This document shows, piece by piece, positions 2,737 through 55,341 of a DNA stretch of 64,000 nt. The notes beneath the pieces were generated by a model that did no database searches, was not told the DNA's origin, and was given only the letters and a program-made list of their open reading frames with translations. Numbering within the stretch: the first letter of the stretch is position 1; every line of letters starts with the position of its first letter. The DNA comes from a virus (taxonomy: Duplodnaviria > Caudoviricetes): positions 64,001 to 128,000 of the IMG/VR virus record IMGVR_UViG_3300021400_000529. The stretch is one strand, 5' to 3'. The position numbers and the translations under genes are program-made.

Positions 2737-2765
2737 TTGCTGATTGGAAATGTGGGGTGTTACTT

Positions 2766-3464: not shown

Positions 3465-3527
3465 ACCAATCAAACAATAAAAAAATAATGGGATAATGGA
3501 AAAAAGGGTGTAGATTAGGAGTATATT

Positions 3528-4055: not shown

Positions 4056-4094
4056 AGGATAATATGAGTAAACTATGAGTGGTGATGGTAATAT

Positions 4095-4988
4095 ATGGGT
4101 AAAAATAGGAAAAGTGGTGGTAGTGGTGGTGGAAACCAGCCTTCTGATGATGAATTAACATGGCAATCCGTAAAAGATGATCCTGAAAAAATTGCGGAGT
4201 TAACTGGTTGGAAATTCACCAAGTATGGTGATGGCAGTTATGATTTTTATGACAAAGAAAATGATTTTCATCTTAAATTAACTGCTCAAACATTAGAAGA
4301 ATTAAAAGATGCACCACTCATGCTTAACAGGATGGTAAAAATAGTTTATAACTTGCCAGATATGAATAAGCAGGTAACACCGAGTATGTATATTATATCT
4401 CCACCACCATATAGGAATGGAGTTTATGGTCAACATATGTCTATCCAGAATAAATATACTAAGGAAGTGCTTGGTCATAGTGTAGCAATTAACTCATCAG
4501 TATTCACAGAAGATGATGATGAAGTTACAAGGATTATGTTACATGAAACTAATCATGCACTTGATTATATTATGGGTGGACTTAAAGACAAAACCAGTAT
4601 TTCCCATTCACGTGAGTTTAAAAATGCTCTTAAATTAGATGGTCCATCCACAGATTATGGTGAATCAACAAAGTATAAAATAAATAAAAATGGTATTATC
4701 ACTGGAGAGTATTCAGAGAGGAGTTTGTATACTAAAGGTTCTAAGTGGTTGACTGAGAATTATGCTGAAGCTGGAAGTATTGTGCAACTTAAAAGATTAG
4801 GGTATGGTTCATCTGAGATTGAATTGCCTGGTGGTAAGTATGTGACGGTTGATGATTGGTGTGAATCTCATAGTCATGTTTATAATGTGGTTAATGATTT
4901 CCTTGATGATTATGATATGAATAATTATGGTAAACCTAATGTTAGTCATGAGATGATTGATAAGCGGTATTCTAATAATATTATTTAG
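4095..4988 (+). CDS. MGKNR-leader protein 3; lethal-factor-like zinc metallopeptidase
   Basis: MGKNRKSGGSGGG; HETNHALDY ... STDYG ... ENYAE. Confidence 0.7.
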   Translation: MGKNRKSGGSGGGNQPSDDELTWQSVKDDPEKIAELTGWKFTKYGDGSYDFYDKENDFHLKLTAQTLEELKDAPLMLNRMVKIVYNLPDMNKQVTPSMYIISPPPYRNGVYGQHMSIQNKYTKEVLGHSVAINSSVFTEDDDEVTRIMLHETNHALDYIMGGLKDKTSISHSREFKNALKLDGPSTDYGESTKYKINKNGIITGEYSERSLYTKGSKWLTENYAEAGSIVQLKRLGYGSSEIELPGGKYVTVDDWCESHSHVYNVVNDFLDDYDMNNYGKPNVSHEMIDKRYSNNII

Positions 4989-5305
4989 TTGTTTGTGGTT
5001 ATTTCATAGTTTTCGTCAAGTATTGTGCTGGTGTATACTGGTGTTTTACTGTCTTCTGTGTGTATGATTTCTGTCCATGATGGTGGTGTGTTTAAGTCGA
5101 GTATGTTTTCGATTTTTACTAGTTTTCCGTCTACTTTGTTTTCTGTGGTGAATACGTGGATTGTTTTTCCTTCTATTGTTTCCTTGTGGTATTCTCCATA
5201 TGTTTTGATGGGTTCTCCTAGTTGGTAATTTAGTACATGTTCTGGAATATCATTTTCTGGTGTTATTTTGTAATGTTTAATTAAATCTTTTATTGTTTTT
5301 ATCAT
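4985..5305 (-). CDS. Small antisense partner of 4095..4988 (putative immunity/inhibitor)
   Basis: Convergent, with a 4-nt 3' overlap. N-terminus MIKTIKDLIKHYKI..IPE shares a pattern with the three other antisense genes. Confidence 0.65.
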   Translation of the reverse strand: MIKTIKDLIKHYKITPENDIPEHVLNYQLGEPIKTYGEYHKETIEGKTIHVFTTENKVDGKLVKIENILDLNTPPSWTEIIHTEDSKTPVYTSTILDENYEITTNN

Positions 5306-5381
5306 TTCTTTCAGCCTCAAATTATTTTATTTTTTTATTTGGTTGGTATGTATGTTGTTTTAATTATTTAATTGTTAAGGA

Positions 5382-5394
5382 TTTTATTATAAAA
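5382..5394. promoter_or_regulatory. Palindrome TTTTATNATAAAA upstream of TerS
   Basis: Exact palindrome, recurring upstream of TerL, the tail completion gene and the endolysin. Confidence 0.45.
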
Positions 5395-5461
5395 TGGTAT
5401 GATGTTAAAGGTTGTGTGTTTTATAAATAGTGATAATGGAAAGTAATGGTGGTTTTTTGTT

Positions 5462-6121
5462 ATGTCAAATGAAGATAATGATGAATATAATTATGATGAA
5501 AGAATTAAGAATGAAACTGTGAAAGCTTTTGCTTATTTTAACACTTACTTGGAGTTAGGACCAAATCGTTCACTGAGTAAAGTACGAGAGAAACATAATA
5601 ATGATATTAGTTTACATCAGTTAAAGAATTATAGTAAAAAATATCATTGGGTTTCCAGAGCAAACAAGAAAGATGAAGATGACTTACAAGTACATAAGGA
5701 AAAGTTACGAGAGGAACAGGAACAGTACTTTGATAAGAGAATGGAACAACTTGACCAGTATCATCAAGCAACAGATGCTGTTCTTGGTCAATTGATGGTT
5801 GACCTCGGACTTATTCCAAATCCAAAAACAAAAGAGTTCGAACCCAATGACCGTGTGAACAGTACTACAGTTGCCAACAGTATTCAAAGTCTTACTAATG
5901 CTAATGCTGTAACTACTAAATTAGCTCTTCGTTTCCTTGGTTTACCAGAGCAAGTTAATGATACACAGGAAGTGGAAGTTAAAGCTGATGTTTCCACAGA
6001 TTATAATGAGGAGTTGAATAAACGGTATGCTGAGTTTAGTGAATCCATCATGGACAAAGCATTCATTAACAAACAGTTAGATTTGATAGATAAAATGATT
6101 GAAAACAAGAATAAGCAATAA
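5462..6121 (+). CDS. terS: Terminase small subunit (putative)
   Basis: N-terminal HTH-like AFAYFNTYLELGPNRSL...WVSRA followed by a helical region; lies upstream of portal and TerL. Confidence 0.65.
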   Translation: MSNEDNDEYNYDERIKNETVKAFAYFNTYLELGPNRSLSKVREKHNNDISLHQLKNYSKKYHWVSRANKKDEDDLQVHKEKLREEQEQYFDKRMEQLDQYHQATDAVLGQLMVDLGLIPNPKTKEFEPNDRVNSTTVANSIQSLTNANAVTTKLALRFLGLPEQVNDTQEVEVKADVSTDYNEELNKRYAEFSESIMDKAFINKQLDLIDKMIENKNKQ

Positions 6122-6136
6122 TTTTTAGGGTAGACA

Positions 6137-7126
6137 ATGGGTAAAAATAGGAAAAGTGCTGGTGGTGGTGCTGGAGAACCAATTCCCACTGAACCAGAAA
6201 TAGATTATTCAGAACAAAACAATGAAGTGTTCCAAGAAATATGTAAAGAAAAGGGTGTTGGACCTAAAGCTAAACAAAAATTAATAGAAATTTTAGAATT
6301 TTGTAATGACAACAACCTAGAATTAACTAAAGGTATAACAATATCATCTCCTAAAAAAGATAATCCTTGGTTTAAGTATGGTGGAACTGCACGGGCAACT
6401 ATTGTTGACAAGGAAACCGGTAAGAAAATCAGTATTTTTGATGACATGCTCAAAGGAAAAAATGCTGATGAATTATCCAAAGAATCATTGGATAACCTGT
6501 TAAAAGGTATACGGTATGAATATGAACATACAAACCCAGAATTCCATAATCTGTATTCTGACATTTTGTTAACAAACCATCGTTTAATACAGGATAGTGG
6601 TAAATGGGTTGCTAGTGGTGGATACGCATTCTTTGACCCGGTAGTACCGAATGCAATTACTATTAGAAGTAGTATGTTGGGTAAACAAGATTTCACTAAA
6701 CTGGGTAAAAATTCATATGGTCATCAATGGAATGAAAACTCTGTTAAAAAGATGGCCGCCACTATTGCTCATGAAAATGGTCATGCTTATGATTATCATG
6801 TGATTGGTAAGGGTACTGGTACTGACCAACCTTCTATTTTCACTGAACATGGACGAAATACTAATACTATTGGTCCATGCTCTTATGCTACAGATGTTCC
6901 TGGTGAAACAATTTCAACAGTCTGTGAGATGGTTATTAATAGAAGAGTTAGAAGTGATGCTAATTTGAGTGATGGCACGAGTATTGATGATGCGTACCAT
7001 GATAAGTATGGTAAATGGCCATCTTCTGTGCCTTCTGCTACGGAGAGTAAGAGAATGTATGAAATATGGTCCAATGATCCACAGTGGGCTCCTTTGATTG
7101 CTGAAGTTGAAGGGTTTATGTTATAA
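6137..7126 (+). CDS. MGKNR-leader protein 4; zinc metallopeptidase
   Basis: MGKNRKSAGGGAG; HENGHAYDY ... CSYA ... GETIS. Confidence 0.65.
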   Translation: MGKNRKSAGGGAGEPIPTEPEIDYSEQNNEVFQEICKEKGVGPKAKQKLIEILEFCNDNNLELTKGITISSPKKDNPWFKYGGTARATIVDKETGKKISIFDDMLKGKNADELSKESLDNLLKGIRYEYEHTNPEFHNLYSDILLTNHRLIQDSGKWVASGGYAFFDPVVPNAITIRSSMLGKQDFTKLGKNSYGHQWNENSVKKMAATIAHENGHAYDYHVIGKGTGTDQPSIFTEHGRNTNTIGPCSYATDVPGETISTVCEMVINRRVRSDANLSDGTSIDDAYHDKYGKWPSSVPSATESKRMYEIWSNDPQWAPLIAEVEGFML

Positions 7127-18198: not shown

Positions 18199-18477
18199 GT
18201 TTATATTAAAGTAGAACAGGTTGCTTCATTTTTTTATTTAACTTGTTAATAACCACTAATGTGGATGATGACACATCAAAAAATTTATCTCTTTCATGAA
18301 AAATATGGAATAATTTAGTTAAAAAAAAAGGATATGGTTGAAATAAGAATATTAAGCGACTAAATTAATTTTTTTCAGATTAAGAGTAAACTATTGTTGT
18401 TTTTTTTTGTATTAATAAAATTTAAAAAAAGTGCATTATTTAACCAAAAAAATTATATATGGAGAAAATTTTTTATT

Positions 18478-19665
18478 ATGAGTGAATTACAATCAATAAT
18501 GGATAAAGTAGAAGAATCATACAAGTCAATGGTAATCGATAACTTTGGAGCTTCAGTACTTCAACCAGGTTACTTTGATAAATATGTTGAATATGCTACA
18601 AGAGATACATCAATTCTCGTTGATGCTAGACAAATTATCATGGATCAACAAGTAGTGAACATTGACAGAACAGGTTTCACTGGCCGTATCCTTGAACCTG
18701 GTAGAGAAACAAGAGTACCAAAAAGAGCAAAACCAGAAGTAAGACAGGAAAGATTAATTGCTAATGAACTTGTTGCTGATGTTGCTATTACTGACCAAGC
18801 TCTTCGTAGAAACATTGAAAGAGGTGGATATGAAGATACACTTATTAACATGATGGCTGCTCAAGCTGGTGCTGACTGGGAATCATACGCTGTGCTTGGT
18901 AACAGAGGATTAGCAGAAGAAAATCCCGAAATTGACCCATTATTAACAGAACAAAACGGTTGGATTGCTAAATGTAGAAACCACATTTACAGTGATGATA
19001 CTGAAATTGCTGGTGCAAAACAAGGTAAAGAAGTACAGACTATGCTTCGTTCCATGTTAAAACATTACCCACAGGAATACAGGGGAGACAGAAGAAGTCT
19101 TGTATACTACCTTGATTCTGATACATTTGATGATTATGTAGAAGAAGTTGGAGAAAGACCAACAATTGCTGGGGACGATGCTATAAGTAATTACATTGCA
19201 AGACCATATAAAGGTATTGAAATCAGAGAAGCTCCAGTATTAAACGAAGCTAGAGATATTGAAGGAGTTGGAACTACCGCAATGCTTGTAAACCCAGACA
19301 ACCTTGTATATGGTATCTTTGAAAATGTAACTATTGAAAGAGATAGAAATGTAAGAAGAAGATTAACTGACTTTGTATTAACAATGGAAGTTGACCAAGC
19401 ATTTGAAAACCCATTCCTTTGTGTATGTGCTCACCCTGATGTTGCTGAAGAAGACAGTGTTGCTGAAGCTGAATCTGATTACAGTAACTTCCATCATAAT
19501 GGTAAGGGTACTTATGAATACATCAACAAAAAAGGTTACTTACCAGATACTGGAAATGGACCTCACAACACAAGATATGATGCAACACATGATATTGACC
19601 CAAGTTCATACACTACAAGTGGTACCGTAACTCCGGGCAATGGTAATGGTCAAGACGGAGGATAA
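18478..19665 (+). CDS. Major capsid protein (HK97 fold)
   Basis: Start MSELQ after GGAGA. VLQPGYF, ALRRNIE, YKGIEI..AP and NPDNLVYG fit an HK97-type capsid; position after the protease. Confidence 0.85.
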   Translation: MSELQSIMDKVEESYKSMVIDNFGASVLQPGYFDKYVEYATRDTSILVDARQIIMDQQVVNIDRTGFTGRILEPGRETRVPKRAKPEVRQERLIANELVADVAITDQALRRNIERGGYEDTLINMMAAQAGADWESYAVLGNRGLAEENPEIDPLLTEQNGWIAKCRNHIYSDDTEIAGAKQGKEVQTMLRSMLKHYPQEYRGDRRSLVYYLDSDTFDDYVEEVGERPTIAGDDAISNYIARPYKGIEIREAPVLNEARDIEGVGTTAMLVNPDNLVYGIFENVTIERDRNVRRRLTDFVLTMEVDQAFENPFLCVCAHPDVAEEDSVAEAESDYSNFHHNGKGTYEYINKKGYLPDTGNGPHNTRYDATHDIDPSSYTTSGTVTPGNGNGQDGG

Positions 19666-19732: not shown

Positions 19733-19805
19733 TACTCTTCCCTTTGAATTATTAAATGTAAGTATGAACATTTATTGTAAATAATACTAAATTGGTGATT
19801 TGATT

Positions 19806-20201
19806 ATGTCTGAACATTATTTAAAAGGAGCCACATGGGTTCTTCAAAATGAAAATTTTAAGTATGAAGGAGTACTTGATGAGAATGGAAAAACTGATTT
19901 AAGAAACATTGCATTAGGTGAGTATGAGTTCACATTATCCAAAAAAGGATATGAAACAAAAACAATTGAAGTAATTGTTTCACCAGAACCAATCAATATA
20001 GAAGTAGACTTAGAACCTTTACCTAAACCGGAATTGGTGGAAGAAAAACCTAAACCCAAAAAGACCTCAAAAAAGAAAACAACCAAAAAAACTGAAAAAA
20101 AGGTTGAAGAAGAAGTAGTAGTAGAAAAACCTAAAAAAACTACTCGTAAAAAAACCTCAAAAAAGAAAACTACTAAAAAAGCTGAAGAAAAAAAAGAATG
20201 A
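19806..20201 (+). CDS. PEGA/prealbumin-like domain protein with Lys-rich tail
   Basis: LDENG....LGEYEFTLSKKGYE motif; KKTSKKKTTKK occurs twice. Confidence 0.6.
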   Translation: MSEHYLKGATWVLQNENFKYEGVLDENGKTDLRNIALGEYEFTLSKKGYETKTIEVIVSPEPINIEVDLEPLPKPELVEEKPKPKKTSKKKTTKKTEKKVEEEVVVEKPKKTTRKKTSKKKTTKKAEEKKE

Positions 20202-20268: not shown

Positions 20269-21057
20269 TTGCCTGAATTAACAACACAAGAAAATAAAAT
20301 AATTAAAGATATTTTATTTCATTTAGATGGATGGAGAGTAAATGACCATCCTAAAGAAACACGGAAAATAGAATCGTTCCTTGACCCAGATGAAGTTGGT
20401 TTTGATAATGAGGTACGGAAGGAAGTAAGTAGTAAGGAAGTATTGCATGTTTATGATATGGCTAAAATTCATGCCTTGAATTATATTAGACGAAAAGAAT
20501 TTCCAAATAATCCGGCTGTTTATCAAGCCATTTGTTACTGGGCTGCTGGATTACTATCAGAGAAAGCTAGTTTTCGTGATGATCACATTAAAAATGATTA
20601 TAATTTAATTGAAGAAGCAAGGAAACTACTTAGTCCTTATGTTAAAAGGAATGATGAGTTTTTCCTTGTTCGTGGTGATGATTTTTTCTGGGAAGAATAT
20701 ATGCAATCTGAAAGACATCCTCATCCAAGAAGGGATAGAATTCCATGGGAACCTGATGAGGATGGTGATGAGGAAAAGGAGCGATTAATTCATGGACATT
20801 TCCATGAACACCATAAAGAACATTTCCATCACAAACCACATCGTAAACCTAAACATCATTGTCCAAGAAGAAAAGATCCTTTTGTTGAAAATGCAAAGAA
20901 TTGGATAAACAATATTAAAACCAACAAGTTTGACATTGATGTACGCATGGATGTTGATGAAGAGTTTGGTTCGGTTAAGTTTAACATTTATTTGAAGCGA
21001 TTTGGTAAACCTTGTGATAGGGGTAAGGTAATGTTATATGTGTATGAAGATGAATAA
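20269..21057 (+). CDS. Head-tail adaptor-like protein with His-rich insert and C-terminal half Ig domain
   Basis: Helical gp6/gp15-like N-terminus (A..YI......AVYQAICYWAA...A.KLLSPYV); TTG start after GGAG. Confidence 0.55.
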   Translation: MPELTTQENKIIKDILFHLDGWRVNDHPKETRKIESFLDPDEVGFDNEVRKEVSSKEVLHVYDMAKIHALNYIRRKEFPNNPAVYQAICYWAAGLLSEKASFRDDHIKNDYNLIEEARKLLSPYVKRNDEFFLVRGDDFFWEEYMQSERHPHPRRDRIPWEPDEDGDEEKERLIHGHFHEHHKEHFHHKPHRKPKHHCPRRKDPFVENAKNWINNIKTNKFDIDVRMDVDEEFGSVKFNIYLKRFGKPCDRGKVMLYVYEDE

Positions 21058-21075
21058 AATGATGGAGAAAATGCA

Positions 21076-22326
21076 ATGAGAAAAGAGTTAATAGGAACAG
21101 CTGAAGTACATGATGGAAGAGCTGAATATATATGGAACATTGATGAAAACATTTCTCCAGGAAATAAGAAAATATATATAGCATACCTTGGCGAAGATGA
21201 ATACATGGTTTCTGAATCATGGGAAAACATCACAATCAAAATTCCTACAAGCACTGTGTTGGAACAGGAAGAAATTACTACAAATCCTACTGTGAATAAT
21301 GATCATCCAGTTATCGTTACTTTGAATGCCATAGTCAATAACAGTAAATTGTTGGAACCGGTCCCTAATGGGAAGGTTCAGTTTCAGATTAAAACAGAGT
21401 TAGATGATATTTATGTTAATGTGGGTAATCCTGTTGATGTTGTGAATGGTGTTGCAAGTTATAATTATACTGTTCCAAGGACACCTCAGACCACTATTTT
21501 AATCCGAGCTATTTATCTAGGAACTTCTTTGTATAGTGGTAGTGAATGTTTAACTCCAACCACAATGACTATCAGAGGAACTGTGGATTTAAGTATTAAA
21601 TCGTTAAGAACTAATCAAGGTAATACTGAGACCATATCTGCAACCGTTAAAACATTTGATGGTGAAACTGTTGAAAGTGGTAGTTTAAACTTTTATTTGG
21701 ATAATCAGAAAATTAAAACCATTTCTGCCATAACTTCACAGAAAGTTGAGTTTGAGTATGTATTCCCTCAAAACATTAACAGTGGTGAACACCAGTTGAA
21801 AGTGGAATATATGGGTAGTGATGATTATAGTGGTGGTTACGCTACCAATATTGTTTATATTCGTTCAAGAACATTCATAGATGACAGTATTGTTTATGCT
21901 CATCCAACGGTTGTGGAGAATAATGAAGTTGTGCAAGGTATTGCTACGATTCCTATAAGAGTGTTGGATGATGATGGTAACATTGTTCCTGAGGGTACTG
22001 TGGAATTTACCTGTAACGGTACCACTGAAACTGTGAATTTTGGTGTTAATACGAGTAGGGAAATTAGTTATAATATTCCTTTGGGTATGCAGGGTGGTGA
22101 TGAAATTCCGTTTACTCTTTCATACCAAGAGAACTTCAATTATCAGTCATGTACAATACAATCCAGTATTGTTATAAAATTTCGAACAACAGTAGAACTC
22201 GATGACTTTGAAGGTAATCAAGGTGATACTGTAACTTTAAGAGCTTTTGTGACTGATGAACGGGGTGATGATGTGGATGAAGGAGAAGTGGAATTTGGAA
22301 TGGAAACCAACTCTGATGATGTATAA
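21076..22326 (+). CDS. Ig-like repeat virion protein (half + 3 + half domains)
   Basis: Big_3-like repeats with G.V.F, NG.A and Y.G...Y motifs. Confidence 0.75.
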   Translation: MRKELIGTAEVHDGRAEYIWNIDENISPGNKKIYIAYLGEDEYMVSESWENITIKIPTSTVLEQEEITTNPTVNNDHPVIVTLNAIVNNSKLLEPVPNGKVQFQIKTELDDIYVNVGNPVDVVNGVASYNYTVPRTPQTTILIRAIYLGTSLYSGSECLTPTTMTIRGTVDLSIKSLRTNQGNTETISATVKTFDGETVESGSLNFYLDNQKIKTISAITSQKVEFEYVFPQNINSGEHQLKVEYMGSDDYSGGYATNIVYIRSRTFIDDSIVYAHPTVVENNEVVQGIATIPIRVLDDDGNIVPEGTVEFTCNGTTETVNFGVNTSREISYNIPLGMQGGDEIPFTLSYQENFNYQSCTIQSSIVIKFRTTVELDDFEGNQGDTVTLRAFVTDERGDDVDEGEVEFGMETNSDDV

Positions 22327-24509
22327 TGACAGTACAAGTAAGTAATATTGATGAATATATTTCCTATTTAACAGATTCGTTGGTTGTTCCTGAAAGTGTT
22401 GTTGTTGGTGAATCTTGTATATGTTATTTTTATAATACTGAGGGTGTAGAATGGATTGGGTCTGGCACAAGACCTATTATCTATTTGAGTTGTTCTTTCA
22501 CAGAAGTCACAGATACTTCTGCTTATGCCATTTCCCAGAATGGTGATGTTGCAATTGCCAACACCACCTCTGTTCCTAATGGAGTTATTGGTCAATGGGA
22601 TGACCTTGTTAAAAGTACTAATCATACAAAACCCAATTGTGTTATGTGGGAATCCACTTATTCTCAAACTGGTACATACAATGTAACAGTTACTTTCAGA
22701 AGAGGTGGTACAAATTATGATGTTACTCGAAGTGTTGAAGTTACTAATGATATAATTGCAACTGCCACTACTACTGTTAAAAACGGGATAAGTACCACAG
22801 GATATGATGTTTTAAAGCCATATTCTGTATATACTGCTTTTTATTCTAATGGTTTGGTGGAATGTTGGGCTTTTGATTTATCATTCACTATTGAAGATAT
22901 TGATGTTGAAGGAGATTGGGGTTGGAGTGATGGTGATGACCTTTTACTTTATGTATATCCAACAAACAATATTCAGACATTATTTGATGATATAACACAT
23001 GAAGGGTATACGATTGACCCGGAGAATGGGATTAGTTATGTTCCACATGATGATTTGGAATTTGTTAGTGGTACAAATACTGTTCTTGTTACTTATGTAG
23101 CTGGTATGGAGTATCCCGATTATTCCTATCCTTATGTTACTTTGAATGACCATGAGTATGAGTGGAATTATTCTGAGGAAACTATTACTCAATCAACCCT
23201 TATTTTTAGGAATGGTCATTCAAGTAATGATTTTGTTGCTGGTCAGACTTATCAGATTACTGCAAGGTATTTGGAGAATGATGGTTATGAGGGTTCAGTG
23301 GATATTGGTGAATTGGAAATACTCAAGTATCCAACCACTACAACAATAAGTGGTAGTTCAAGTGTTACAATAGGAGAAAACTTGACTTTATCAATAGTTG
23401 TAAAAGAAAACAACAACAACACAACCTTAACCAATGGATACATAACAGTATACGATGGAACAGACATTGTACAACAAAACTATGCAATCACAGGTAATAG
23501 TACACAAATAACATTCACACCATCAACCACAGGAACACACAACATATACGCCATATTCACAGACAGTGGAACAACATACAACACAAGCCGAAGCAACACA
23601 TTAACAGTTACTGTGAACAAAAAACCATCAACAATTACCACCAATGTAAACTCCATAGAAACCATCTCCGGAGAACAGAAAACAATCAATGGAACATTAA
23701 CAACAAATGGAACAGGTATTTCTGGAGCAAACATCACAGTAAGTGATTCAAACAACAATGTTTTAATGACGGTTACAACAGATTCCAATGGTGCTTTCAC
23801 ATTCAACTACACACTTGAAAATCTCAATGATTACAACAATAATTTGAGTGTGGAATATGGTGGAACAAACATAATTTCGGCATCATCCAAGAGTATTCAG
23901 GTACTGCCGTATCAGGGAATGATTTATGATTTATGTAATTCTTTAAGTAATTGGAATGTTACTGATTCTGGTAATTCTGCAACATTGGCTACTGTTGGTG
24001 GTTCAACTGCTGTAAAATCACCCTCCACAGATTATCAGAGAGTTTATTGGAAATATCCATTGGTAATTGGAAGTGAAGGTTTGTTCAAATTTAAGATTTA
24101 CAGTAATGCTTCCAACAATGCAATCATACTGGGTACTATGAAAAAATACAACAATGACCATATGACAAATGTAAAAAGTTGGTGGTATGGTCTTGGAAGT
24201 AGTAGAAACTGGACTAATGGACCAAAAAACAGTCAGAACCGACATGGTGGAACAAGAATGAGTAATAATACATGGCACATCATTGAGTTCAGATTAAATG
24301 ACCATCTGTTGGATACTTTACAGGATGGAACAAGTATTGGAACATATACCATTCCTACATTGGATGAGAATAACACTTATTTTAATGATTATTTGTTTTT
24401 GGCTATTACTGGTGTTATTCATATTAAGGATATTGAGTATATGTGTGATGTGTCAGTTTCTGATGGAACATTGCAGAGTATAAGGAATGCTCACTTATCA
24501 CAATTTTAG
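22326..24509 (+). CDS. Ig-repeat adhesin with C-terminal ConA/LamG-like domain
   Basis: Ig repeats (GTHNIYAIF, TTDSNG); C-terminal NNTWHIIEF..DGT..G beta-sandwich motif. Confidence 0.6.
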   Translation: MTVQVSNIDEYISYLTDSLVVPESVVVGESCICYFYNTEGVEWIGSGTRPIIYLSCSFTEVTDTSAYAISQNGDVAIANTTSVPNGVIGQWDDLVKSTNHTKPNCVMWESTYSQTGTYNVTVTFRRGGTNYDVTRSVEVTNDIIATATTTVKNGISTTGYDVLKPYSVYTAFYSNGLVECWAFDLSFTIEDIDVEGDWGWSDGDDLLLYVYPTNNIQTLFDDITHEGYTIDPENGISYVPHDDLEFVSGTNTVLVTYVAGMEYPDYSYPYVTLNDHEYEWNYSEETITQSTLIFRNGHSSNDFVAGQTYQITARYLENDGYEGSVDIGELEILKYPTTTTISGSSSVTIGENLTLSIVVKENNNNTTLTNGYITVYDGTDIVQQNYAITGNSTQITFTPSTTGTHNIYAIFTDSGTTYNTSRSNTLTVTVNKKPSTITTNVNSIETISGEQKTINGTLTTNGTGISGANITVSDSNNNVLMTVTTDSNGAFTFNYTLENLNDYNNNLSVEYGGTNIISASSKSIQVLPYQGMIYDLCNSLSNWNVTDSGNSATLATVGGSTAVKSPSTDYQRVYWKYPLVIGSEGLFKFKIYSNASNNAIILGTMKKYNNDHMTNVKSWWYGLGSSRNWTNGPKNSQNRHGGTRMSNNTWHIIEFRLNDHLLDTLQDGTSIGTYTIPTLDENNTYFNDYLFLAITGVIHIKDIEYMCDVSVSDGTLQSIRNAHLSQF

Positions 24510-24525
24510 TTAAGGATGAGGATTT

Positions 24526-24738
24526 ATGTTTGAAGAATATATATTAGGATTGGGATTTATTGGTTTGTTCATACTGGTATTGATTATTTTACTTATTCCT
24601 TTGATTATTACAGTGGTTGTTGGAGTAACCTTGGCTAATTATTTAGGATTAACTGGATTTGTATGGTGGTGTTTTGTTATACTGTTTTATCTTGTGATTT
24701 CCACTATACTAAGTGTGAGAACCAACAGTAAACTATAA
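24526..24738 (+). CDS. Small membrane protein
   Basis: 70 aa, almost entirely hydrophobic; GAGG RBS. Confidence 0.6.
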   Translation: MFEEYILGLGFIGLFILVLIILLIPLIITVVVGVTLANYLGLTGFVWWCFVILFYLVISTILSVRTNSKL

Positions 24739-24791
24739 AAAAAAGAAACATTTTAGTAAATGTAATAAATTTAATAAAATAAGAACTAACG

Positions 24792-25007
24792 ATGAAAAAA
24801 CAACAGAGAGATAATGTATTAAATATTACCTATGGATTTGTGGCTATCACCATACTTGCCATACTGATGATTGTGTTTTTGGTCAGACACATTTTATCTG
24901 ATGATTATGGGCTGCTTATGGTGGCGGATATAATCATTTTAATATTGGATGTTTTCTTGATTTATAGAACACACAAACAGTTGAAGGAGTATTTAGGAAG
25001 AATATAA
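24792..25007 (+). CDS. Small two-TM membrane protein (holin-like?)
   Basis: Two hydrophobic helices with basic termini. Confidence 0.55.
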   Translation: MKKQQRDNVLNITYGFVAITILAILMIVFLVRHILSDDYGLLMVADIIILILDVFLIYRTHKQLKEYLGRI

Positions 25008-25024
25008 TAAGTAAAGGTGTATTT

Positions 25025-25498
25025 ATGTCTGGTTGGTATGGACATACTATAACAGTAAATATTGATGAATCTTTTAAATTCCCAAAGATCGGAGGAAAAC
25101 TTGCATTCCTGAATCCCTACGTCAATGAGGAAGTGGATAGATTAAATAGGAAACTGAAATTTGCTGGTTCAAGAATTTCCTATGACATTGCCTTGATGAG
25201 TCAAACATATCAAAGAAGAGCAATAACAGATTTGGATGCTGTAGATACGGGAAGATTAAGGGATAGTGTCCGTATTACTGGTAATGGTTTAACAAGTCAT
25301 ATCGGAACCGATTTATTTTATGCTGAAACTGTGCATGATATAGGATATAAGAACCAAACAATTTTCAATATTAATGGGATAACAATTAGAGGACATAGTG
25401 ATATTGGTCCAAGACCGTGGACAGAAGTTTCGGCGGGTATGGTTTTGGAAAAGATTGATGGGATAGTGGATGGTCATCTGAATAAGATATTTGATTGA
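25025..25498 (+). CDS. HK97 gp10-like neck/tail completion protein
   Basis: AVDTGRLRDS, YAETVH.G and PRPW motifs. Confidence 0.8.
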   Translation: MSGWYGHTITVNIDESFKFPKIGGKLAFLNPYVNEEVDRLNRKLKFAGSRISYDIALMSQTYQRRAITDLDAVDTGRLRDSVRITGNGLTSHIGTDLFYAETVHDIGYKNQTIFNINGITIRGHSDIGPRPWTEVSAGMVLEKIDGIVDGHLNKIFD

Positions 25499-25524
25499 AA
25501 ACATATTCACCCCTTTTTTTTATA

Positions 25525-25537
25525 TTTTATAATAAAA
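25525..25537. promoter_or_regulatory. Palindrome TTTTATAATAAAA upstream of the tail genes
   Basis: Exact match to the recurrent palindrome; extends to 17 bp (25523-25539). Confidence 0.4.
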
Positions 25538-25553
25538 TACACTTGAAATATAT

Positions 25554-26240
25554 GTGTCCAAAATAATCTCAAAAGAAAATGGAAAAGGTAATGCAAAGAT
25601 AATCATGGAAGAAAAAAAGAAAGGATATGAATGGCTTGAAAGTGATGTTCAAATAATGAACCTTTTACTTGAAAAACAAGCACAGGGTGATGAAATCCTA
25701 AATCTTTTCAACATTCAATTCATGGATGATTCATACTTAAATGAGGACATGGAAGAAATGAACCGTATCTATGTTGTTCGAGACAGAACTGTTAATGATG
25801 GAAAACCCACTACATTCGAGGGAGATGGTTATCACTGTTTTGTGGAAATAATCATCAGAACAAGCAACCACAACTATATTCAGGCACAACAATTACTTAA
25901 AACTGCTGTAGTATGTATTGACCAACATATTGAAATGGACAACCTAAGCAAATGGACAGAAATAAGAGAGATTGTACCAAAATATGAGAAACCAGGCAAA
26001 CTACGGGAGTACCGTTTAGAATTGTTATGTTATGAAATCAAGGAAAAGGTTGCTTATCCTCAACTGTGTAGTGAAGATTTAAGGGTGGATTTATGTGTTC
26101 AAATTGGTATAGAAAATACTGATAAAGAATGGCATAAAATATATCCACATATTAATAGAAGAAATGACATGATACAACTTCATTCAAGGGAAGAGTTAGA
26201 AGAAGAGCAGATAGACGAAAGAAAATTTGTGAGAGGTTGA
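25554..26240 (+). CDS. Putative tail terminator/completion protein
   Basis: Position between the gp10-like gene and the sheath; size fits. Start codon uncertain. Confidence 0.45.
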   Translation: MSKIISKENGKGNAKIIMEEKKKGYEWLESDVQIMNLLLEKQAQGDEILNLFNIQFMDDSYLNEDMEEMNRIYVVRDRTVNDGKPTTFEGDGYHCFVEIIIRTSNHNYIQAQQLLKTAVVCIDQHIEMDNLSKWTEIREIVPKYEKPGKLREYRLELLCYEIKEKVAYPQLCSEDLRVDLCVQIGIENTDKEWHKIYPHINRRNDMIQLHSREELEEEQIDERKFVRG

Positions 26241-26252
26241 ATAAGATAAAAA

Positions 26253-28871
26253 ATGGTAAATGTAGATATTAGAACACGAGTAGAACTCAAAAACGAAACC
26301 ATCCATAACAATGGAACAATTGGTTCAGCTGGTCGTGTAGCTCTTATCGGTGCATTCCCGAGTGGGAAACAAAGAACATTTGCTGCCGAAAGTTTTGCCA
26401 AACTATGTAACCATTATGGAGTAAAACTTAACAGTACTGCTGTTAACTGGTACTCTGGTGTACGTGCAGCTAGACGTATATTTATGGAAGGTATCAACGG
26501 TTATAGAGGAGCTAGTTCAGTAACTTGTGTTAACATTTGTAAACTGAAACCAAACTATTTTGAAGATGTTTCACCATTATACAAAGATACATATGATGAA
26601 ATTGAACAAGGTTATGATACTGAAAAGAAAACATTAACTGGTTCACTTGGAATAAATACCCAAACCAACAAATATATTCCGGATGGTGATGCTTTAAAAC
26701 AAGATGTGAGTTTATCATTCGAAAAACTCAAAAAAGCATTATTCAGTATTGCCGACGAAGATATGGATTTGTTATTCATAGCCAATGATTTGTGGGAAAT
26801 TTTTGATAATCCGTTAAAAGAAAGAATTGAATATCCTGCATTATATTATGGGAAATTAGATGCTAAAGAAGCCGATGCTTTGAATTATGAACAGCATTAT
26901 GTTGTTGTAAACGAATATGGAGTTCCTGTAACAGTTAAAGAACCAGTAGTGGATGCAAATGGAAATCAAGTAACAGATGAAAATGGAAATCTTCAATATA
27001 CCGAACATCTCAAATGCCCATTTCTTACAAGGTTTAGGGAAGATGGTGTTGAAGAATTAGCATGGACTCCTGCGACTGAAGTAGTCGATGAAAATGACAA
27101 ATATGCCAACACAAGCACCCCTAGAAAATCCCAAATAATTGATGAAAATGAAAAATTTGTATGGGCTGATGATGGTCATGGTTCTAAAAAATGGCAATTC
27201 ATCACAGAAGAAACAAAAACATCACCTTTTACCGGATTAATGCCTGGTGAAAAAGTACAAAGAGTGTATTTTGATAGGGATGGTTTAAACTGGCAAGTAT
27301 CACCTGCTTTCTACAAAAGACAAGATATATTGGACAACGTAGTAAGAGACAAAACACAGGAAAAACAACCAGCTACTTCATACATAGTTCCAACCAAAAA
27401 TAAAACACCTGTTCTCCTTAACACAGATATGGCTCAATGGTATATTGACACTTTATTCGGGTCTTCTATGCAAACCGTAACGGTCAAAGACCCAGTTACG
27501 AACGAAAACGTATCTAAAAAGGTTGCTAAACAATATATTAAACCGTTTAGAATTGTTGTTAAGATAAAAGACAACACTCCTGTATTCGTAGATGGTGCAT
27601 TAAAATGTCCTTATAAAACAAAAGAAGAGAATGGTAACATAGTTTATGATAAGGTTGATGGAAAATTACAGGAACTTGGAGAATATGGTAGTACTGGTGA
27701 TCAGAACCTTGCGTATGGTGAAAAATTAGCTTATGGGTATTTCTTCAATGATGGTTCCTCAAATGCCTCTTCACCACAATGGTATACAACTCATGCTGAT
27801 AAGTTGTATTATAATAATTTCTATGGTACTTTAAAAGAATATGGTGAGTTGAAAGACAGTAATGGTGTCACTGTTTATGGTATAACTGACAAAGGCAAAT
27901 ATATCAGAAATATTGGTGATGTATATGATTATATTATCGACTTTGTTGACAATGAATTCACCAACCATCGTCCAGTGAATTATGTTGGTGCTGTTAAAAC
28001 AAGAGGAAAACCTGAAGGTAGTGAAAATAATTATACACTGCAAGGGATTGGTAGTGAAATCATCAGAGTAAACAGTGAACGATACAACTATGAAGATGAA
28101 ACCAACGCTACTAAAAAAGCAAGATACACACCTACGGAATCCAATCCTTATGCTGATATTACAACATGGGGTGCTGTTGACATAGCTAACTTGTTTAAAC
28201 GCAAATCCAATGAATTAACCACTTGTGGATTATTCTATCAAGGGGGTATTATTGGTAATGGTTCAAGTGATGGTGAAGAAGTTGATGCTATGGAACTTGC
28301 AGCTCATATAACGGGTTGGATTTGTAGTATTCCATTGGAACAGGATTTAACTTATCAGACTATTCCTGGTTTACTTGCTGTGGATGAAGAACCATTCCTT
28401 GGTGAGTATGATGCTGGTAATATGTTGAACTTGGCCGGTATTCAAGTTATAAGACCTAAGAGTCGGTTGGATAAGACATTCTATGTGAATAATAGTATTA
28501 TGCCTAGTGGTTGGCATACTAATCATGTTCGTAGTGTTACTTATCTTCTTAAACGTTTACAGTTTGAGTCTGGTCTTGGTATAAATAATTATGTTTCTAA
28601 TACTGAGGCTTATCGTGCAATGCTTGATTCTGTAGCTAAGGAAGTTATGAGTGAATGTGATATTATCCGTGGTGTGACTGTGGGTGATGTTGAAATCATT
28701 AATCATTATCATATTTACATACCTATCTCTATCATGTTGAGTGGTGTTGTAACACTGATTAATATTGGTGTGGGTATGACTCTTGATGAAACTGGTGCTT
28801 GGGGTAGTTATATAAGAACTAATTCTGGTGCTTATGTGAAATCAAGTAATGGATATACATATAGTATTTAA
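26253..28871 (+). CDS. Tail sheath protein with large insertion
   Basis: N-terminal VALIGAF...SFAKL...YG; C-terminal sheath-like region (LAAHITG..LTYQ..LNLAGIQVI..NHVRSV); precedes the tube. Confidence 0.75.
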   Translation: MVNVDIRTRVELKNETIHNNGTIGSAGRVALIGAFPSGKQRTFAAESFAKLCNHYGVKLNSTAVNWYSGVRAARRIFMEGINGYRGASSVTCVNICKLKPNYFEDVSPLYKDTYDEIEQGYDTEKKTLTGSLGINTQTNKYIPDGDALKQDVSLSFEKLKKALFSIADEDMDLLFIANDLWEIFDNPLKERIEYPALYYGKLDAKEADALNYEQHYVVVNEYGVPVTVKEPVVDANGNQVTDENGNLQYTEHLKCPFLTRFREDGVEELAWTPATEVVDENDKYANTSTPRKSQIIDENEKFVWADDGHGSKKWQFITEETKTSPFTGLMPGEKVQRVYFDRDGLNWQVSPAFYKRQDILDNVVRDKTQEKQPATSYIVPTKNKTPVLLNTDMAQWYIDTLFGSSMQTVTVKDPVTNENVSKKVAKQYIKPFRIVVKIKDNTPVFVDGALKCPYKTKEENGNIVYDKVDGKLQELGEYGSTGDQNLAYGEKLAYGYFFNDGSSNASSPQWYTTHADKLYYNNFYGTLKEYGELKDSNGVTVYGITDKGKYIRNIGDVYDYIIDFVDNEFTNHRPVNYVGAVKTRGKPEGSENNYTLQGIGSEIIRVNSERYNYEDETNATKKARYTPTESNPYADITTWGAVDIANLFKRKSNELTTCGLFYQGGIIGNGSSDGEEVDAMELAAHITGWICSIPLEQDLTYQTIPGLLAVDEEPFLGEYDAGNMLNLAGIQVIRPKSRLDKTFYVNNSIMPSGWHTNHVRSVTYLLKRLQFESGLGINNYVSNTEAYRAMLDSVAKEVMSECDIIRGVTVGDVEIINHYHIYIPISIMLSGVVTLINIGVGMTLDETGAWGSYIRTNSGAYVKSSNGYTYSI

Positions 28872-28962
28872 TTATTTATGATTTGTTATGATGGTGGCAT
28901 AATTAATTATATTTCACCTTATAATTATGTCCCTCTTCATAACTTTTACCATAAATAATTAA
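28868..28962 (+). other. Long imperfect stem-loop after the sheath gene
   Basis: TTAATTATTTATG/CATAAATAATTAA, GTTATGA/TCATAAC and GCATAATTA/TAATTATGT nested arms. Confidence 0.55.
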
Positions 28963-28986
28963 TTGATTAACATATATTTTTTAGTT

Positions 28987-30147
28987 ATGACAAGAACAAC
29001 GATTGGAAATTCAACAGTATCTGAAGGTCAAGCGGAAACCACATATGTAATTCCTGGAGATACAAGTCCCGGTGTTCATACTATTTATGCAAATTATCTT
29101 GAAAACGATAATTACATGAGTAGTAGTGGATACAATACAGCTGAAATAAGGATACCAACAGTAACTACTATTTCTGATGTTCTGGCCAGTATTGGTGAAA
29201 CTGCTACTTTCACTGCTAATGTGAAATATAATACTACTCAGAATGTGAATGAGGGTACAGTGCAATTTCAGATGGGTGGTGTAAACATTGGAACTCCCGT
29301 GAATGTTAGTAATGGTGTTGCCACACTTCAATATGAAATTCCATCTAATGCTACTGATGGAACTGCCATAAAGGCTATTTTCATTGAAACAAACATTTAT
29401 GGTGCTTCCCAATCAGCAAATGGTACTTTGAATATCCGTGAGGGTACGAATGTAAGTATTCAAAGTATTTCTGCTAATCGTGGTAGTCAAGCAACTATTA
29501 CTGCGGAAATCACTGATAGTGGTGGTGATCCTGTGATTTCTGGTCAAGCTCAGTTGTATATTGATAATACTGCAAGTGGTTCTCCTGTAAATGTTAGTAA
29601 TGGTAGTGTGTCTTTCACTTATACCGTTGCTAATAATGCTGTGTTGGGTGGTCATACTATCAAGGTTTCATATCTTCAGAATAGTACATATGATCCAGCT
29701 GATGGAACTGCCACATTAACAATTAGAACACCAACTTCAATAACTCCAGTAAACATTTCTGCTAACAAGGGTGCAACGGTAACACTTACTGTACGGATTA
29801 CTGATATTAATTCAACATCTGTACCTGAAGGAACTGTTAGTATAATTGTAGGAGAGGGTGAAGGAGTTAGTGCTAATGTTGGATTGAATGGTGAAGCAAG
29901 TATTAGTTATAACGTTCCTTCAAATGCTAGTGGTACTATTAATTTCAATGCTGTTTATATTGAAAACAATAATTATGAATCCAGTAGTACTGTTACGGCT
30001 GGTGTGCTTACAATACGAAAAGGTACTGTTGTAATTGTAGATAGTATTAAAGCAGAACTTGGAGATACAATCACATTATCTTCAACAGTTACTGATGAGG
30101 ATAGTGAACTTGTAGATACTGGAACTGTTACTTATGAAATAGAATAG
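28987..30147 (+). CDS. Circularly permuted Ig-repeat protein (half + 3 + half domains)
   Basis: Three complete Big_3-like repeats flanked by complementary half-domains; ATG at 28987. Confidence 0.8.
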   Translation: MTRTTIGNSTVSEGQAETTYVIPGDTSPGVHTIYANYLENDNYMSSSGYNTAEIRIPTVTTISDVLASIGETATFTANVKYNTTQNVNEGTVQFQMGGVNIGTPVNVSNGVATLQYEIPSNATDGTAIKAIFIETNIYGASQSANGTLNIREGTNVSIQSISANRGSQATITAEITDSGGDPVISGQAQLYIDNTASGSPVNVSNGSVSFTYTVANNAVLGGHTIKVSYLQNSTYDPADGTATLTIRTPTSITPVNISANKGATVTLTVRITDINSTSVPEGTVSIIVGEGEGVSANVGLNGEASISYNVPSNASGTINFNAVYIENNNYESSSTVTAGVLTIRKGTVVIVDSIKAELGDTITLSSTVTDEDSELVDTGTVTYEIE

Positions 30148-30186: not shown

Positions 30187-30600
30187 ATGGCAGAAACAAC
30201 AAAAACATTATACCAAACAGACATTTTTATTAATAAACAACCGGTAGGATGGGCTAAGGAAATTAGTTTTGACATAGATTATGGGAATGAACAAGAACCT
30301 ACACATAGTGGTAGAATGACTCATAACAGTAAATATCCTGGTTGTGAAATTAGTATTACAAAACTTACTAAGTTTGAATCTGTTAAGGAAAATCAGTTTA
30401 TTGATGCTATTGACACTCTTGCTGAACAGGGTGGTACTGTGACCATGATTACTAAAGAACCTGGGGGTACTTTGGTAATAAATGCTTATGATTGTCGTCC
30501 TGATAGTGAACAATGGAGTAATAATGCTGATGAGTTCCTTGAAATTGAATTAACTCTGCAAGGTGAAAGCTTTGACAGAGAATTCAGAGCTTCAACATAG
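30187..30600 (+). CDS. Tail tube protein
   Basis: 137 aa, beta-rich; sits after the sheath and before the chaperone; GAGG RBS. Confidence 0.7.
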   Translation: MAETTKTLYQTDIFINKQPVGWAKEISFDIDYGNEQEPTHSGRMTHNSKYPGCEISITKLTKFESVKENQFIDAIDTLAEQGGTVTMITKEPGGTLVINAYDCRPDSEQWSNNADEFLEIELTLQGESFDREFRAST

Positions 30601-45228: not shown

Positions 45229-48200
45229 GTAAGATTGTTCCGAAAATAAATGTTAATGTTCCCGGAGAATATGGTTCTGGTATGAAATATCCTGAACCTA
45301 TTGAAATTTTTTGTTCATTGAGGTATGTTGAAGATTTTGACAATTGTTATCTTTCATTGTATGAGGGTGATAATTTAATTCAAAGAATACATTACAATGG
45401 CAGTACTTCTGTTTATATTTCAAATCAAAAACCTTCGGATGAGGAAATTGAATATACTTTTGTTTATGATGGAAATAAAGATTATGAACCGGCTTCCAAG
45501 ACAGTATCATTTCATTATTATAAATCATCATATTCTCTTTCAAAAATTGATGAGGGTGATAATGTTTCATCATCTTTTATTATGGAGAATTGTAAAATAA
45601 ACCTGCAACTATTGGAAGGAGACAAAGTTTCACAAAAAGATATACATTACCATACTGATTATTATAATTTTTCAGGTATGTTGGTTAGAACAGAAACTGG
45701 AACATTAACTCCAAACAGTTATGGTAGAGTGGAGTATGAATTAACATCCGACATATTATCAACAGCACAAACCACATTCACTGTAGAAGGAGATGATTAT
45801 TATGAGGAATGTTCCTACACTACCAATTTTGAATGGGTTGCCAAACATACAGCTGAAACGATTCTTACTTTGAATGCTGAAAATATAAGGTACAGGAATG
45901 GGTACAGACCAATTCATATGACTGCTAAAGCAGAAAACATTGATGGACAAGCAATTGATGGAACAATGTCATTTTACGTTGATAATGTTCTTGTTTCAGA
46001 AGATTCTACCAAAAATGGTGTGGCTTATGCTATAAATCCTAACAATCCACGGGAAACTCCATTTAATTACCGTGTTGAGTTCAGTGGGAACAACACATAT
46101 GCACCAATGAGTGTGAGTAAAGATGTTTACTATAACAGACAAATACCATTACTAGTCGAGGTAAGAAATAGTTCTGTTAATCATGTAACTGAAGATAATG
46201 AAATCAAATTTTTCTTTTGTCGAACAGATGAAACGGCATTAACTAATTCTGCTCTCAGACATAGTATAACATATTATGATAATGATGGAAATGTTATAAA
46301 CACTGTCACTGGTTTTGGTAGGACTGATAATGAAGGGATTTATACGGTTGTAGCATCGTTGAATGTGGAAGGATCTGCTGAAGTCACAGTTTCATTTACT
46401 GCTGGTAGTGGAACTTATGAACCTGTATCCCGAACAGTAACTTGTTCATGGGTTGAAATGGAGGGTGTACATACTCATGGGTGGGTTGAAAGTAGTGGTG
46501 CATTATATCCTAATCCGTTGGTAATTGAAGGTGTTATTGAGGATACTAACAATCCTGATCTTGAAAACAGAGAAATAAAATTATACCGTAATGAAACACT
46601 TGTAAGTACAACTTTAACTAATATTGATGGAGAATTTGCTTTTGAGGACACACCGGTTCCTAATCGTTTAAGTGATGATAATGATTTTTACACATATTAC
46701 TTTGAATATGATGATTATGGGACGTCCAAAAGACAAATAGTTAATAAGGTACAATATCTTAACAAATCCACATTCACACAGTTAAATGGTTCATCCACTG
46801 TACCAATTGGAAGTGAAGGAACAGTAATATTGAAATTGTCCGATTATGCTGAGAATCTGGTGGATGCCAGTGTAAAAGTGGATATAACTGGATTGGATGA
46901 GGGAAAAACAATAACAATACCTTCTGAAATTAAAGAACAAACACTTACTACGGACAGTAGTGGTGAAATTTTATTCACGTTCACACCACAGGAAGTGGGG
47001 ACATATGAAATAATATTCACCTATGAGGGAAATGAATATTCACCGCCAACAAAGTTTTACAAAATAATCACATATAACAGGATACCAACAACATTAACAT
47101 TACTTGATAAATCAGAGAACTTAGAAGTAACTGATACTGGAATAATACAAATCAAATTAACAGACACCAATAGTAATATCCTAACCAACAAGAGAGTGCA
47201 ATGTGACCTTAAACTATTAACTGAAAATGATGAAGAAATAAGAGTACATGATTCCTGTTTTGATAAATTAGTACTGTTTACAGATAGTAATGGTATAATT
47301 ACTCTTGATTATAATCCAAGCACAGTTGGAGGGGTCACTGGTATTTTTACATTCACATGTTTGGAAGATGAAATCTATTCTTCATCAACATTAACAGAAA
47401 CTCTTTTTTGGGATTATATGGAAACTTCAATTGTTTTACTCGACAGAACCGAATGGACGGAGGCAACGTTGATGGGAGAAGTTCTGGTGAAATTGAAACG
47501 AAATAAAACCAATGAATATATTCCATATCAATTGTTGTCCTCAGAAATATCTTTTGAAGATAATGATACTGAGGGTAATCCAATTCCTATTGAAAGTGTG
47601 GAAGGTATTGATTTGGGTCAAGACAGACTGACAAACAGTAATGGAGAAACCAAATTTGGATATATTCCTTATAAAGGATTGTTGTTGGGTTATTATACAA
47701 TTTCATTTGCTGGAAATAACATATATGCATCTTCTACATTTTTTGATGACTATGGTATTGAGTGGGATAAGATTGAAACAACCATTTCAGCTAATAATGT
47801 CACAGCATATGAGGGGAGATATACTGATTATAGTACTGATATGACTAATTCTTATACTGAATTGTCAAATCCTTCACGGATTGGTTTGGATTGGGAAATA
47901 TTGGAACTTGCTGGAGCAAATGATGTTCCCGAGAATGTGGATACTGATGGTGTGAATGTTGTTTTAGGAAGGTATGAGAGGAATGTGTTTAAAATTCCTT
48001 TCCTACGGAATGGGAAATATAAAATAACATTCATGGGTGGTTATGGTGCTTATGTTGGATTATGTAATAGTTATTCCAATTTAGCCAAATGGGAAACAAT
48101 TTATCTTATACCAACAAATGGGTATATTCGAAATGCTGCAAATGTTCTCGAATTTACCATCGATAATGAAGATATAACAATAACAGTCAATGAAAATACT

Positions 48201-55235: not shown

Positions 55236-55341
55236 AACTGAATGTTCATAATGAATGTTTTAGGGAATATAAAAAAAAATAATAATATTTTCCCCTTTTT
55301 TTTATTATTTTTTTCTTCCTTTTTTTTAATTTTTAGTAACA

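Follow-up and report, generated by a model that had tools for sequence, protein, structure and literature searches.

In the crystal structure of a joint from the Lactococcus phage Tuc2009, a 25-residue hairpin of BppU completes the beta-sandwich of BppA, and the composite superimposes on a titin immunoglobulin (Ig) domain; through this joint, an accessory carbohydrate-binding protein is linked to the virion (PMC4742702). In the split nozzle of the Pseudomonas podophage A1002, gp39 fills beta-propeller blades that lack strands in gp42 (PMC13730344). Chaperone-usher pili and archaeal cannulae are assembled from incomplete Ig-like subunits (PMC12518558), and RTX adhesins are reported to have an Ig-like domain interrupted in cis by a ligand-binding insert (PMC10865825, PMC12077191). 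Viruses of gut Methanobacteriales are enriched in Ig-like domains, with a proposed role in glycan or mucus binding (MSTV1, PMC11375127). Here we describe four genes encoding halves of Ig domains in a 64,000-nucleotide stretch of DNA (the window), which corresponds to positions 64,001 to 128,000 of the tailed virus record IMGVR_UViG_3300021400_000529 (137,316 bp).

The nearest relatives of the window proteins were found in Methanosphaera metagenome-assembled genomes (MAGs) and in gut metagenomes, and the host of this 137-kb virus is the gut methanogen Methanosphaera. The four split-Ig genes, g20269, g21076, g22326 and g28987, are all located on the plus strand downstream of a capsid-type gene, with g28987 about 6.6 kb farther downstream:

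20269..21057, plus strand: g20269, putative anchor, 262 amino acids (aa); predicted adaptor domain 1-124, tether 125-203, helix 204-217, first half of an Ig repeat at about 218-258.
21076..22326, plus strand: g21076, putative proximal linker, 416 aa; second half of a repeat 1-56, Big_3_5 repeats 57-369, first half 370-412 followed by TNSDDV.
22326..24509, plus strand: g22326, putative tip or terminator, 727 aa; N-terminal beta domain 1-139, second half 140-162 and 304-335, then a distal part with a full Ig 338-432, an Ig-like domain 435-523 and a C-terminal domain of about 200 residues.
28987..30147, plus strand: g28987, putative distal (second) linker, 386 aa; second half 1-56, three repeats 57-345, first half 346-386.

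The half domains were delimited with a hidden Markov model (HMM) of 95 positions, built from seven full Ig repeats of the window proteins, and strands were assigned from the secondary structure of AlphaFold2 models, all of them of single chains. The cut falls in the tight C-C' turn, so that a first half contains strands A, B and C, and a second half strands C', E, F and G. Below, a C-terminal first half is called a plug and a second half a socket. A six-frame scan of the 137-kb genome detected three orphan first halves, at the C-termini of g20269, g21076 and g28987, three orphan second halves, at the N-termini of g21076 and g28987 and inside g22326, and no others. Complete Big_3_5-like domains are also present within larger tail-region proteins at window positions 46869-47045, 50757-52883 and 55330-56658, where no Big_3_5-like protein starts or stops at a half domain.

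The original prediction, made by eye from the letters, had read both g28987 and g21076 as a second half, three full repeats and a first half. The motifs it quoted are indeed found where it had placed them, and both the HMM and Pfam agree with this layout. Along the HMM, g28987 matched as 47-94, three times 1-95, and 1-38, and g21076 as 48-94, three complete repeats, and 2-42. With the Pfam Big_3_5 model (PF16640, 88 positions), the N-terminal halves of g28987 and g21076 corresponded to positions 31-80 and 38-86, respectively, and the gathering cut-off of 35.5 bits was passed by g28987 (103 bits; whole-protein E-value 1.4e-29), g21076 (75.6 bits; 4.5e-21) and g22326 (40.7 bits). If the reading frame is extended back to the stop codon before it, the alignment of the g28987 N-terminal half begins at HMM position 39. 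Since the C-terminal half (ending ...GTVTYEIE) stops at position 38, the two ends of the protein are complementary, with zero overlap and hardly any gap. The AlphaFold2 model of g28987 (predicted local distance difference test score, pLDDT, 80.5; predicted template modelling score, pTM, 0.37) has seven strands in each repeat. The halves lack an invariant Lys/Asn/Asp set of the kind that would suggest an isopeptide bond.

This architecture is strictly conserved. All of the full-length g28987 homologues (63/63; 37-87% identity, mostly 384-406 aa) contain a half, three repeats and a half with identical break points, so that the split pattern is not due to chance, and the halves are conserved to the same degree as the internal repeats. 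Repeat proteins often gain or lose units through unequal recombination, and the ends might be disordered leftovers of repeat shuffling with no role in pairing. However, we give this explanation next to no chance in view of the invariance of the break points over such divergence, the equal conservation of halves and internal repeats, and the recurrence of the same cut on the unrelated anchor and tip proteins.

A lone first half had also been predicted at the end of g20269. In the window protein this half, which runs to ...GKVMLYVYEDE, is too diverged for detection by the HMM. It is clear in the orthologues (independent E-values of 6e-6 in L003, 2.8e-9 in P0085 and 1.1e-9 in L009), and the end of g20269 aligns column by column with their first halves, which bears out the assignment. 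The AlphaFold2 model of g20269, based on a 23-sequence alignment, consists of a helical region (residues 1-124, pLDDT 85-97), a tether (pLDDT about 50), a helix and a beta-hairpin (221-244, pLDDT 87). When this model was compared by VIA-align with 48,161 PDB representatives, about 40 of the top 45 matches, over model residues 5-135, were phage adaptor or neck proteins (overall Z 6-9.3). The best were GP4 (8jov_2; Z 9.3, root-mean-square deviation (rmsd) 2.9, 93 aligned) and P74-26 (9oab_Ea; Z 9.3), with HK97 gp6 (3jvo; Z 8.4) and SU10 (7z47_A; Z 8.3) among the others, as well as YqbG, T4 gp13, Mu and HFTV1. Foldseek by itself gave a weak match (P74-26 neck, E 0.33), and the Atlas gave a lead only, to SU10_adaptor (0.90). 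No sequence match to g20269 was obtained in Pfam, PHROG, NCBIfam or PDB, and its 23 homologues have no Pfam or PHROG match either. The gene lies between the capsid and the neck/tail genes, in the order protease, capsid, small beta-sandwich, g20269, and the same order is found in L007, L008 and L009. On account of the fold matches and of this place after the capsid genes, g20269 is, as modelled, a head-to-tail adaptor of the HK97 gp6/SPP1 gp15/SU10 fold, which supports the neck anchor role first suggested for it.

The tether of g20269 (window 20641-20877, residues 125-203) is rich in His and Pro, HGHFHEHHKEHFHHKPHRKPKHH, and the adaptor tethers of P0085 and L009 contain histidine runs of 6-9. 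A metal-binding or pH-sensitive tether is possible.

Fused and split forms of these proteins coexist in nature. When 1.84 billion representatives were searched in full by HMMER with g20269, 27 matches were obtained. Six of them were rejected as spurious, being long bacterial FG-GAP-like repeat proteins that have a GGWRV.NHP motif in common with g20269 residues 7-48. About half of the remaining homologues are plain adaptors of 110-190 aa, while P0081, P0083, P0085 and P0086 end in a first half, as g20269 does. In P0082 (51% identical to g20269) and P0084, the adaptor continues in-frame into g21076-like repeats, with a complete Ig (HMM 5-93 and 5-94) exactly at the position of the window's TAA, GGAG site and ATG. 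In P0084, this junction Ig is followed by two more full repeats and a terminal first half, whereas its close relative P0085 is of the split form, as is L009, which is also close to P0084. At the DNA level, L008 contains a 691-aa adaptor-linker fusion open reading frame that ends in a first half, and the next gene encodes a tip whose orphan second half is contiguous. Finally, P0046 is a g28987-type protein with an in-frame N-terminal helix and first half resembling an adaptor C-terminus. Because the fused relatives have a complete Ig exactly at the junction, the conclusion that the halves of g20269 and g21076 form one domain is strongly supported by this Rosetta-stone comparison of fusion and fission. 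Half-domain complementation between subunits, as initially proposed, thus finds strong support at the g20269-g21076 junction; as a reading of the whole set of proteins it is partly supported.

The genes g20269 and g21076 share a reading frame and are separated by just a TAA and six sense codons. Read-through or frameshifting could therefore join adjacent genes covalently, in which case the halves would never be on separate chains. Such recoding is scarcely credible, since g21076 has its own GGAG ribosome-binding site and ATG, and the corresponding genes are 80 nucleotides apart in L003 and separated by several stops in L009, in different frames in both cases. Moreover, g21076 and g22326 are in different frames, the TAA stop of the former overlapping the ATG of the latter, and g28987 is 6.6 kb away. 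The homologues of g28987 start at the ATG at 28987. It is preceded by a 115-nucleotide AT-rich spacer (28872-28986) with no Shine-Dalgarno motif, unlike the linker genes of L009 and L011, which have AGGA/GGAGG sites. A separate promoter producing a leaderless transcript is possible for g28987.

The exact complementarity of the two ends of one linker chain would also suit a closed ring of four domains, in which the linker's own halves pair like Velcro, much as a beta-propeller closes, and the adaptor plug binds the tip socket directly. In the single-chain AlphaFold2 model both halves are ordered strands (pLDDT 68-85), and as a whole the model is best matched by curved arrays of MG domains, those of C3, C5 and A2M. 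Yet the fused P0082, P0084, L008 and P0046 complete the N-terminal half in cis and still keep a C-terminal first half. In addition, only 2-4 residues separate the Ig repeats in the linkers, and a self-closed linker would be unattached to the virion. No defined ring is predicted, given the pTM of 0.37 and an rmsd of about 15 A to the MG arrays; the fold searches with this model cover residues 57-344 only, returning MG/Ig-like beads. We consider a ring quite improbable. P0051 was considered as a variant with two instead of three internal repeats and was rejected, as it is an internal-methionine gene call in a 385-aa open frame with an NN gap. P0052, which starts like P0051, is probably the same artefact and was not upheld, and neither was counted as evidence against ring closure.

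The predicted joint resembles the BppU-BppA joint of Tuc2009 in that a terminal beta element completes the incomplete beta-sandwich of a partner, between two structural proteins of a phage (PMC4742702). In Tuc2009, two strands are donated once, in the baseplate of a bacterial siphophage, whereas here three of seven strands would be donated, serially, through bifunctional linkers, with the head-to-tail adaptor of an archaeal virus as the anchor, and both fused and split forms occur. The likeness drawn here is structural, and a two-polypeptide beta-sandwich has indirect support from the fused versus split homologues. In A1002, too, a gene is split inside a fold, and its two products rebuild one canonical tail protein (PMC13730344), but there the fold is a beta-propeller and the two proteins form one fixed heteromer, with no module that builds or lengthens a chain. 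With chaperone-usher pili and archaeal cannulae, the proposed fibre would have in common that each incomplete Ig-like subunit is completed by the next, in head-to-tail chains that run from an adhesin to a terminator or anchor (PMC12518558). The pilus-like character originally proposed holds by this analogy, but not in its detail. Pili and archaeal filaments donate one strand, most of them with a chaperone and an usher, whereas here the split is into three and four strands: the cut lies between C and C', unlike that of the pilin Ig fold, which lacks just the seventh strand and is completed by an N-terminal extension of the next subunit. Furthermore, the PapD-like chaperone model PF00345 had no match in the 137-kb genome under conditions in which the controls responded; the usher model was not searched for. 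In MSTV1, the capsid protein gains its Ig domain through a -1 frameshift or through fusion, and no split domains are described (PMC11375127). In our literature searches we found neither a 3+4 split Ig joint nor bifunctional linker proteins nor an adaptor-borne plug described.

The socket of the predicted tip, g22326, differs from those of the linkers. It was detected as two collinear HMM pieces, residues 142-162 (HMM 4-22) and 308-332 (HMM 30-54), separated by an insert of about 140 residues. This interrupted organization is kept in the homologue P0080 (28% identical), in agreement with the lone, interrupted second half first described by eye. The impression that the second half lies at the N-terminus of g22326 was dropped, since that region scores -3 bits with the HMM. 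In L009, L008 and L020, the tip proteins lack the insert and have an uninterrupted second half. The insert recalls the split Ig of RTX adhesins, but the latter are reported to have both parts in one chain, where the domain is complete. The N-terminal domain, the insert and the C-terminal domain of g22326 have no Pfam match. For the C-terminal domain, predicted to be lectin-like, only a weak language-model lead was obtained (Atlas, DUF6645/Sialidase-like_CBM at 0.93-0.94), and this label was not sustained.

The tip protein is 94% identical between the window (22326-24509) and a 141.8-kb relative (L007, 12150-14330). Between the same two viruses, the linker flanking the tip is 38.5% identical and the adaptor 49%. 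This contrast suggests that the tip module was exchanged recently, or that the proteins are under very different constraints of selection.

Each locus examined encodes one plug-only protein (the putative anchor) and one socket-only protein (the putative tip). With the window protein alone as the query, no related locus was obtained from IMG/VR, and an adaptor alignment gave none in genome_contigs. Two paralogous linkers are present in the window and the L003/L007 viruses. The g21076 type, after the adaptor, evolves fast, with the low identity between the two viruses given above; the g28987 type is conserved (73% identical) and has been relocated between tail genes. In L009, L011 and L020, the g28987-type protein is the sole linker and is encoded in the fibre cluster, by the anchor and tip genes; in L009 and L020 its gene immediately follows the anchor gene. 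The L009 locus (36.5 kb) reads protease, capsid, small sandwich, adaptor (plug), g28987-type linker (P0017, a g28987 orthologue, 69% identical), tip (socket), neck genes, sheath candidate and tube candidate. In L020 the order is protein X (plug), g28987-type linker and a tip beginning with a socket, the L020 adaptor having just 165 aa. In L011, the adaptor plug is followed 6 nucleotides later by a gene starting with a socket (Big_3_5 39-86, E 3.6e-4). Gene order often matches the proposed chain order, as in these loci. Judging from L020, where the plug is carried by the unrelated protein X of 327 aa and not by the adaptor, the plug-socket connector is portable.

The L020 locus (2288-6275) is in contig C108 of a Methanosphaera sp. 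rholeuAM74 MAG, with fibre genes that precede those of the capsid. An NN gap falls exactly at the junction of protein X and the linker, where a fusion of the two is possible, and a 232-aa protein of this locus also begins with a second half. In L011 (4234-5640, P0099 type), the adaptor gene encodes an adaptor, a complete Ig, about 170 residues of unknown fold and a C-terminal first half.

Among the window, L007, L009 and L020, the tip sockets share 47-54% identity and are invariably accompanied by g28987-type plugs (63-73% identical). As, in addition, the g28987-type linker is the only partner open to the tip socket in L009 and L020, g28987 would be the linker that adjoins the tip. The fusions fix the adaptor-g21076 junction and the remainder follows by elimination, so that our best estimate of the order in the window is adaptor, g21076, g28987, g22326. 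This is also the order given in the original prediction, with which the comparative data are compatible.

Several observations weigh against this assignment or loosen it. In L008, a g21076-type plug seems to meet the tip directly, and in L011 the gene adjoining the adaptor encodes a tip-like protein, so that the order found for the window is not unique. The g28987 socket is 45-49% identical to the tip socket; with plugs alike and sockets alike, mixed or repeated linkers are possible. The orphan second half of g22326 has weak HMM matches (independent E-values of 0.007 and 2e-4 against four sequences). At its pTM, the g28987 single-chain model is uninformative on whether the ends pair, and since the orphan hairpin of g20269 also scores a pLDDT of 87, pLDDT is no test of pairing. 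The identity of g20269 as an adaptor depends on its modelled fold and its gene position: neither PF05135 (Phage_connect_1) nor PF24175 (SU10_adaptor) had a match at E <= 10 in the genome, which leaves g20269 outside the former family by sequence, and PF24175 had none in any control genome either, which makes its silence here uninformative.

The likeness of the sockets also bears on copy number. The original prediction had made g28987 a self-polymerising shaft, in which many copies would be joined head to tail, started by adaptor-g21076 and capped by g22326. The g28987 N-terminal half is close (45-49%) to the very tip socket that its own plug would bind, and g28987-type sockets would take very different plugs in different viruses (the L009 adaptor, protein X of L020 and the P0046 extension), suggesting low specificity. 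Moreover, relocation has put the g28987 gene, with a spacer of its own in front, between the two tail genes that are candidates for high copy number. However, the sole linker of L009, L011 and L020 sits by the anchor and tip genes, with no special copy-number position. No length-control or chaperone gene was recognised, and free bifunctional subunits would cyclise or polymerise off the virion too. We regard such a homopolymer as unlikely. Since the g28987-type protein is the only linker beside anchor and tip in L009, L011 and L020, one g28987 copy per fibre seems at least as likely as a self-polymerised shaft. More tentatively, and with somewhat less than even expectation, the split Ig could be a general low-specificity, chaperone-free connector, in which plug-only initiators, any number of extenders and a socket-only terminator give neck fibres of variable length. 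The initiator would be the adaptor or, in L020, protein X, the extenders g21076- and g28987-type proteins, and the terminator the tip.

We nevertheless favour, as the probable arrangement, a neck fibre of split-Ig-joined subunits in the order adaptor, g21076, g28987, g22326. From the above data we infer binding in trans, chain order, copy number and function as follows. The four genes would encode a modular fibre hung on the virion neck, whose subunits are joined non-covalently, a seven-stranded Big_3_5 Ig domain being rebuilt at each joint from two polypeptides, with strands A, B and C from the C-terminus of one protein (plug) and C', E, F and G from the next (socket). The adaptor g20269, expected in 12 copies under the portal, would expose a long disordered tether with a plug at its end. 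The linkers g21076 and g28987 would be bifunctional, each with an N-terminal socket, three whole Ig beads and a C-terminal plug. With a socket only, g22326 would end the chain and present its variable distal domains, which probably bind host or gut glycans. Assembly would be cytoplasmic, and the chain probably short and heteromeric. Three split-Ig junctions in the chain adaptor-g21076-g28987-g22326 would give up to twelve flexible strings, each of about 12 Ig-size beads.

If correct, this arrangement would be a natural joining of whole virion proteins by Ig protein-fragment complementation, with linkers as extension pieces and the adaptor as anchor, and would add the appendages of archaeal viruses to pili and one lactococcal baseplate joint as cases of assembly by strand complementation. 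It would also account for the way in which adhesin-like modules are mounted and exchanged by viruses of gut methanogens. Were the connector of low specificity, it would amount to pilus-like polymerisation on an archaeal virus, freely rewired by fusion, fission, duplication and module relocation. The natural fused and split variants are ready-made experimental controls, and a self-assembling 3+4 split Ig pair could serve protein engineering as a ligation-free connector.

The genes flanking the four split-Ig genes include the following:

18394-19665, plus strand: capsid-type protein, phrog_1623 virion structural protein (E 2.4e-52).
19800-20201, plus strand: small beta-sandwich protein of 133 aa, CarboxypepD_reg (E 1.2e-4, below the Pfam cut-off).
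26253-28871, plus strand: sheath candidate of 872 aa, upstream flank of g28987.
30187-30600, plus strand: tube candidate of 137 aa, downstream flank of g28987.

The capsid-type and small beta-sandwich genes are directly upstream of the adaptor gene, in an order kept in L007, L008 and L009, and the 133-aa protein is a candidate capsid decoration protein. For the 872-aa and 137-aa proteins, which had been labelled sheath and tube, no family match was obtained and the labels could not be substantiated. The corresponding genes are adjacent in L009, L011 and L020, according to tblastn maps, with no Ig gene between them. The central region of the 872-aa protein (about 190-550) has no counterpart in the proteins of about 370-770 aa from L007, L009, L011 and L020, and looks like a variable inserted domain. 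The interval from the tip gene to the neck/tail genes contains two small genes (24526-25007; 70 and 71 aa), which gave only weak, below-threshold matches to membrane-protein families; both are kept in L007, and one in L009.

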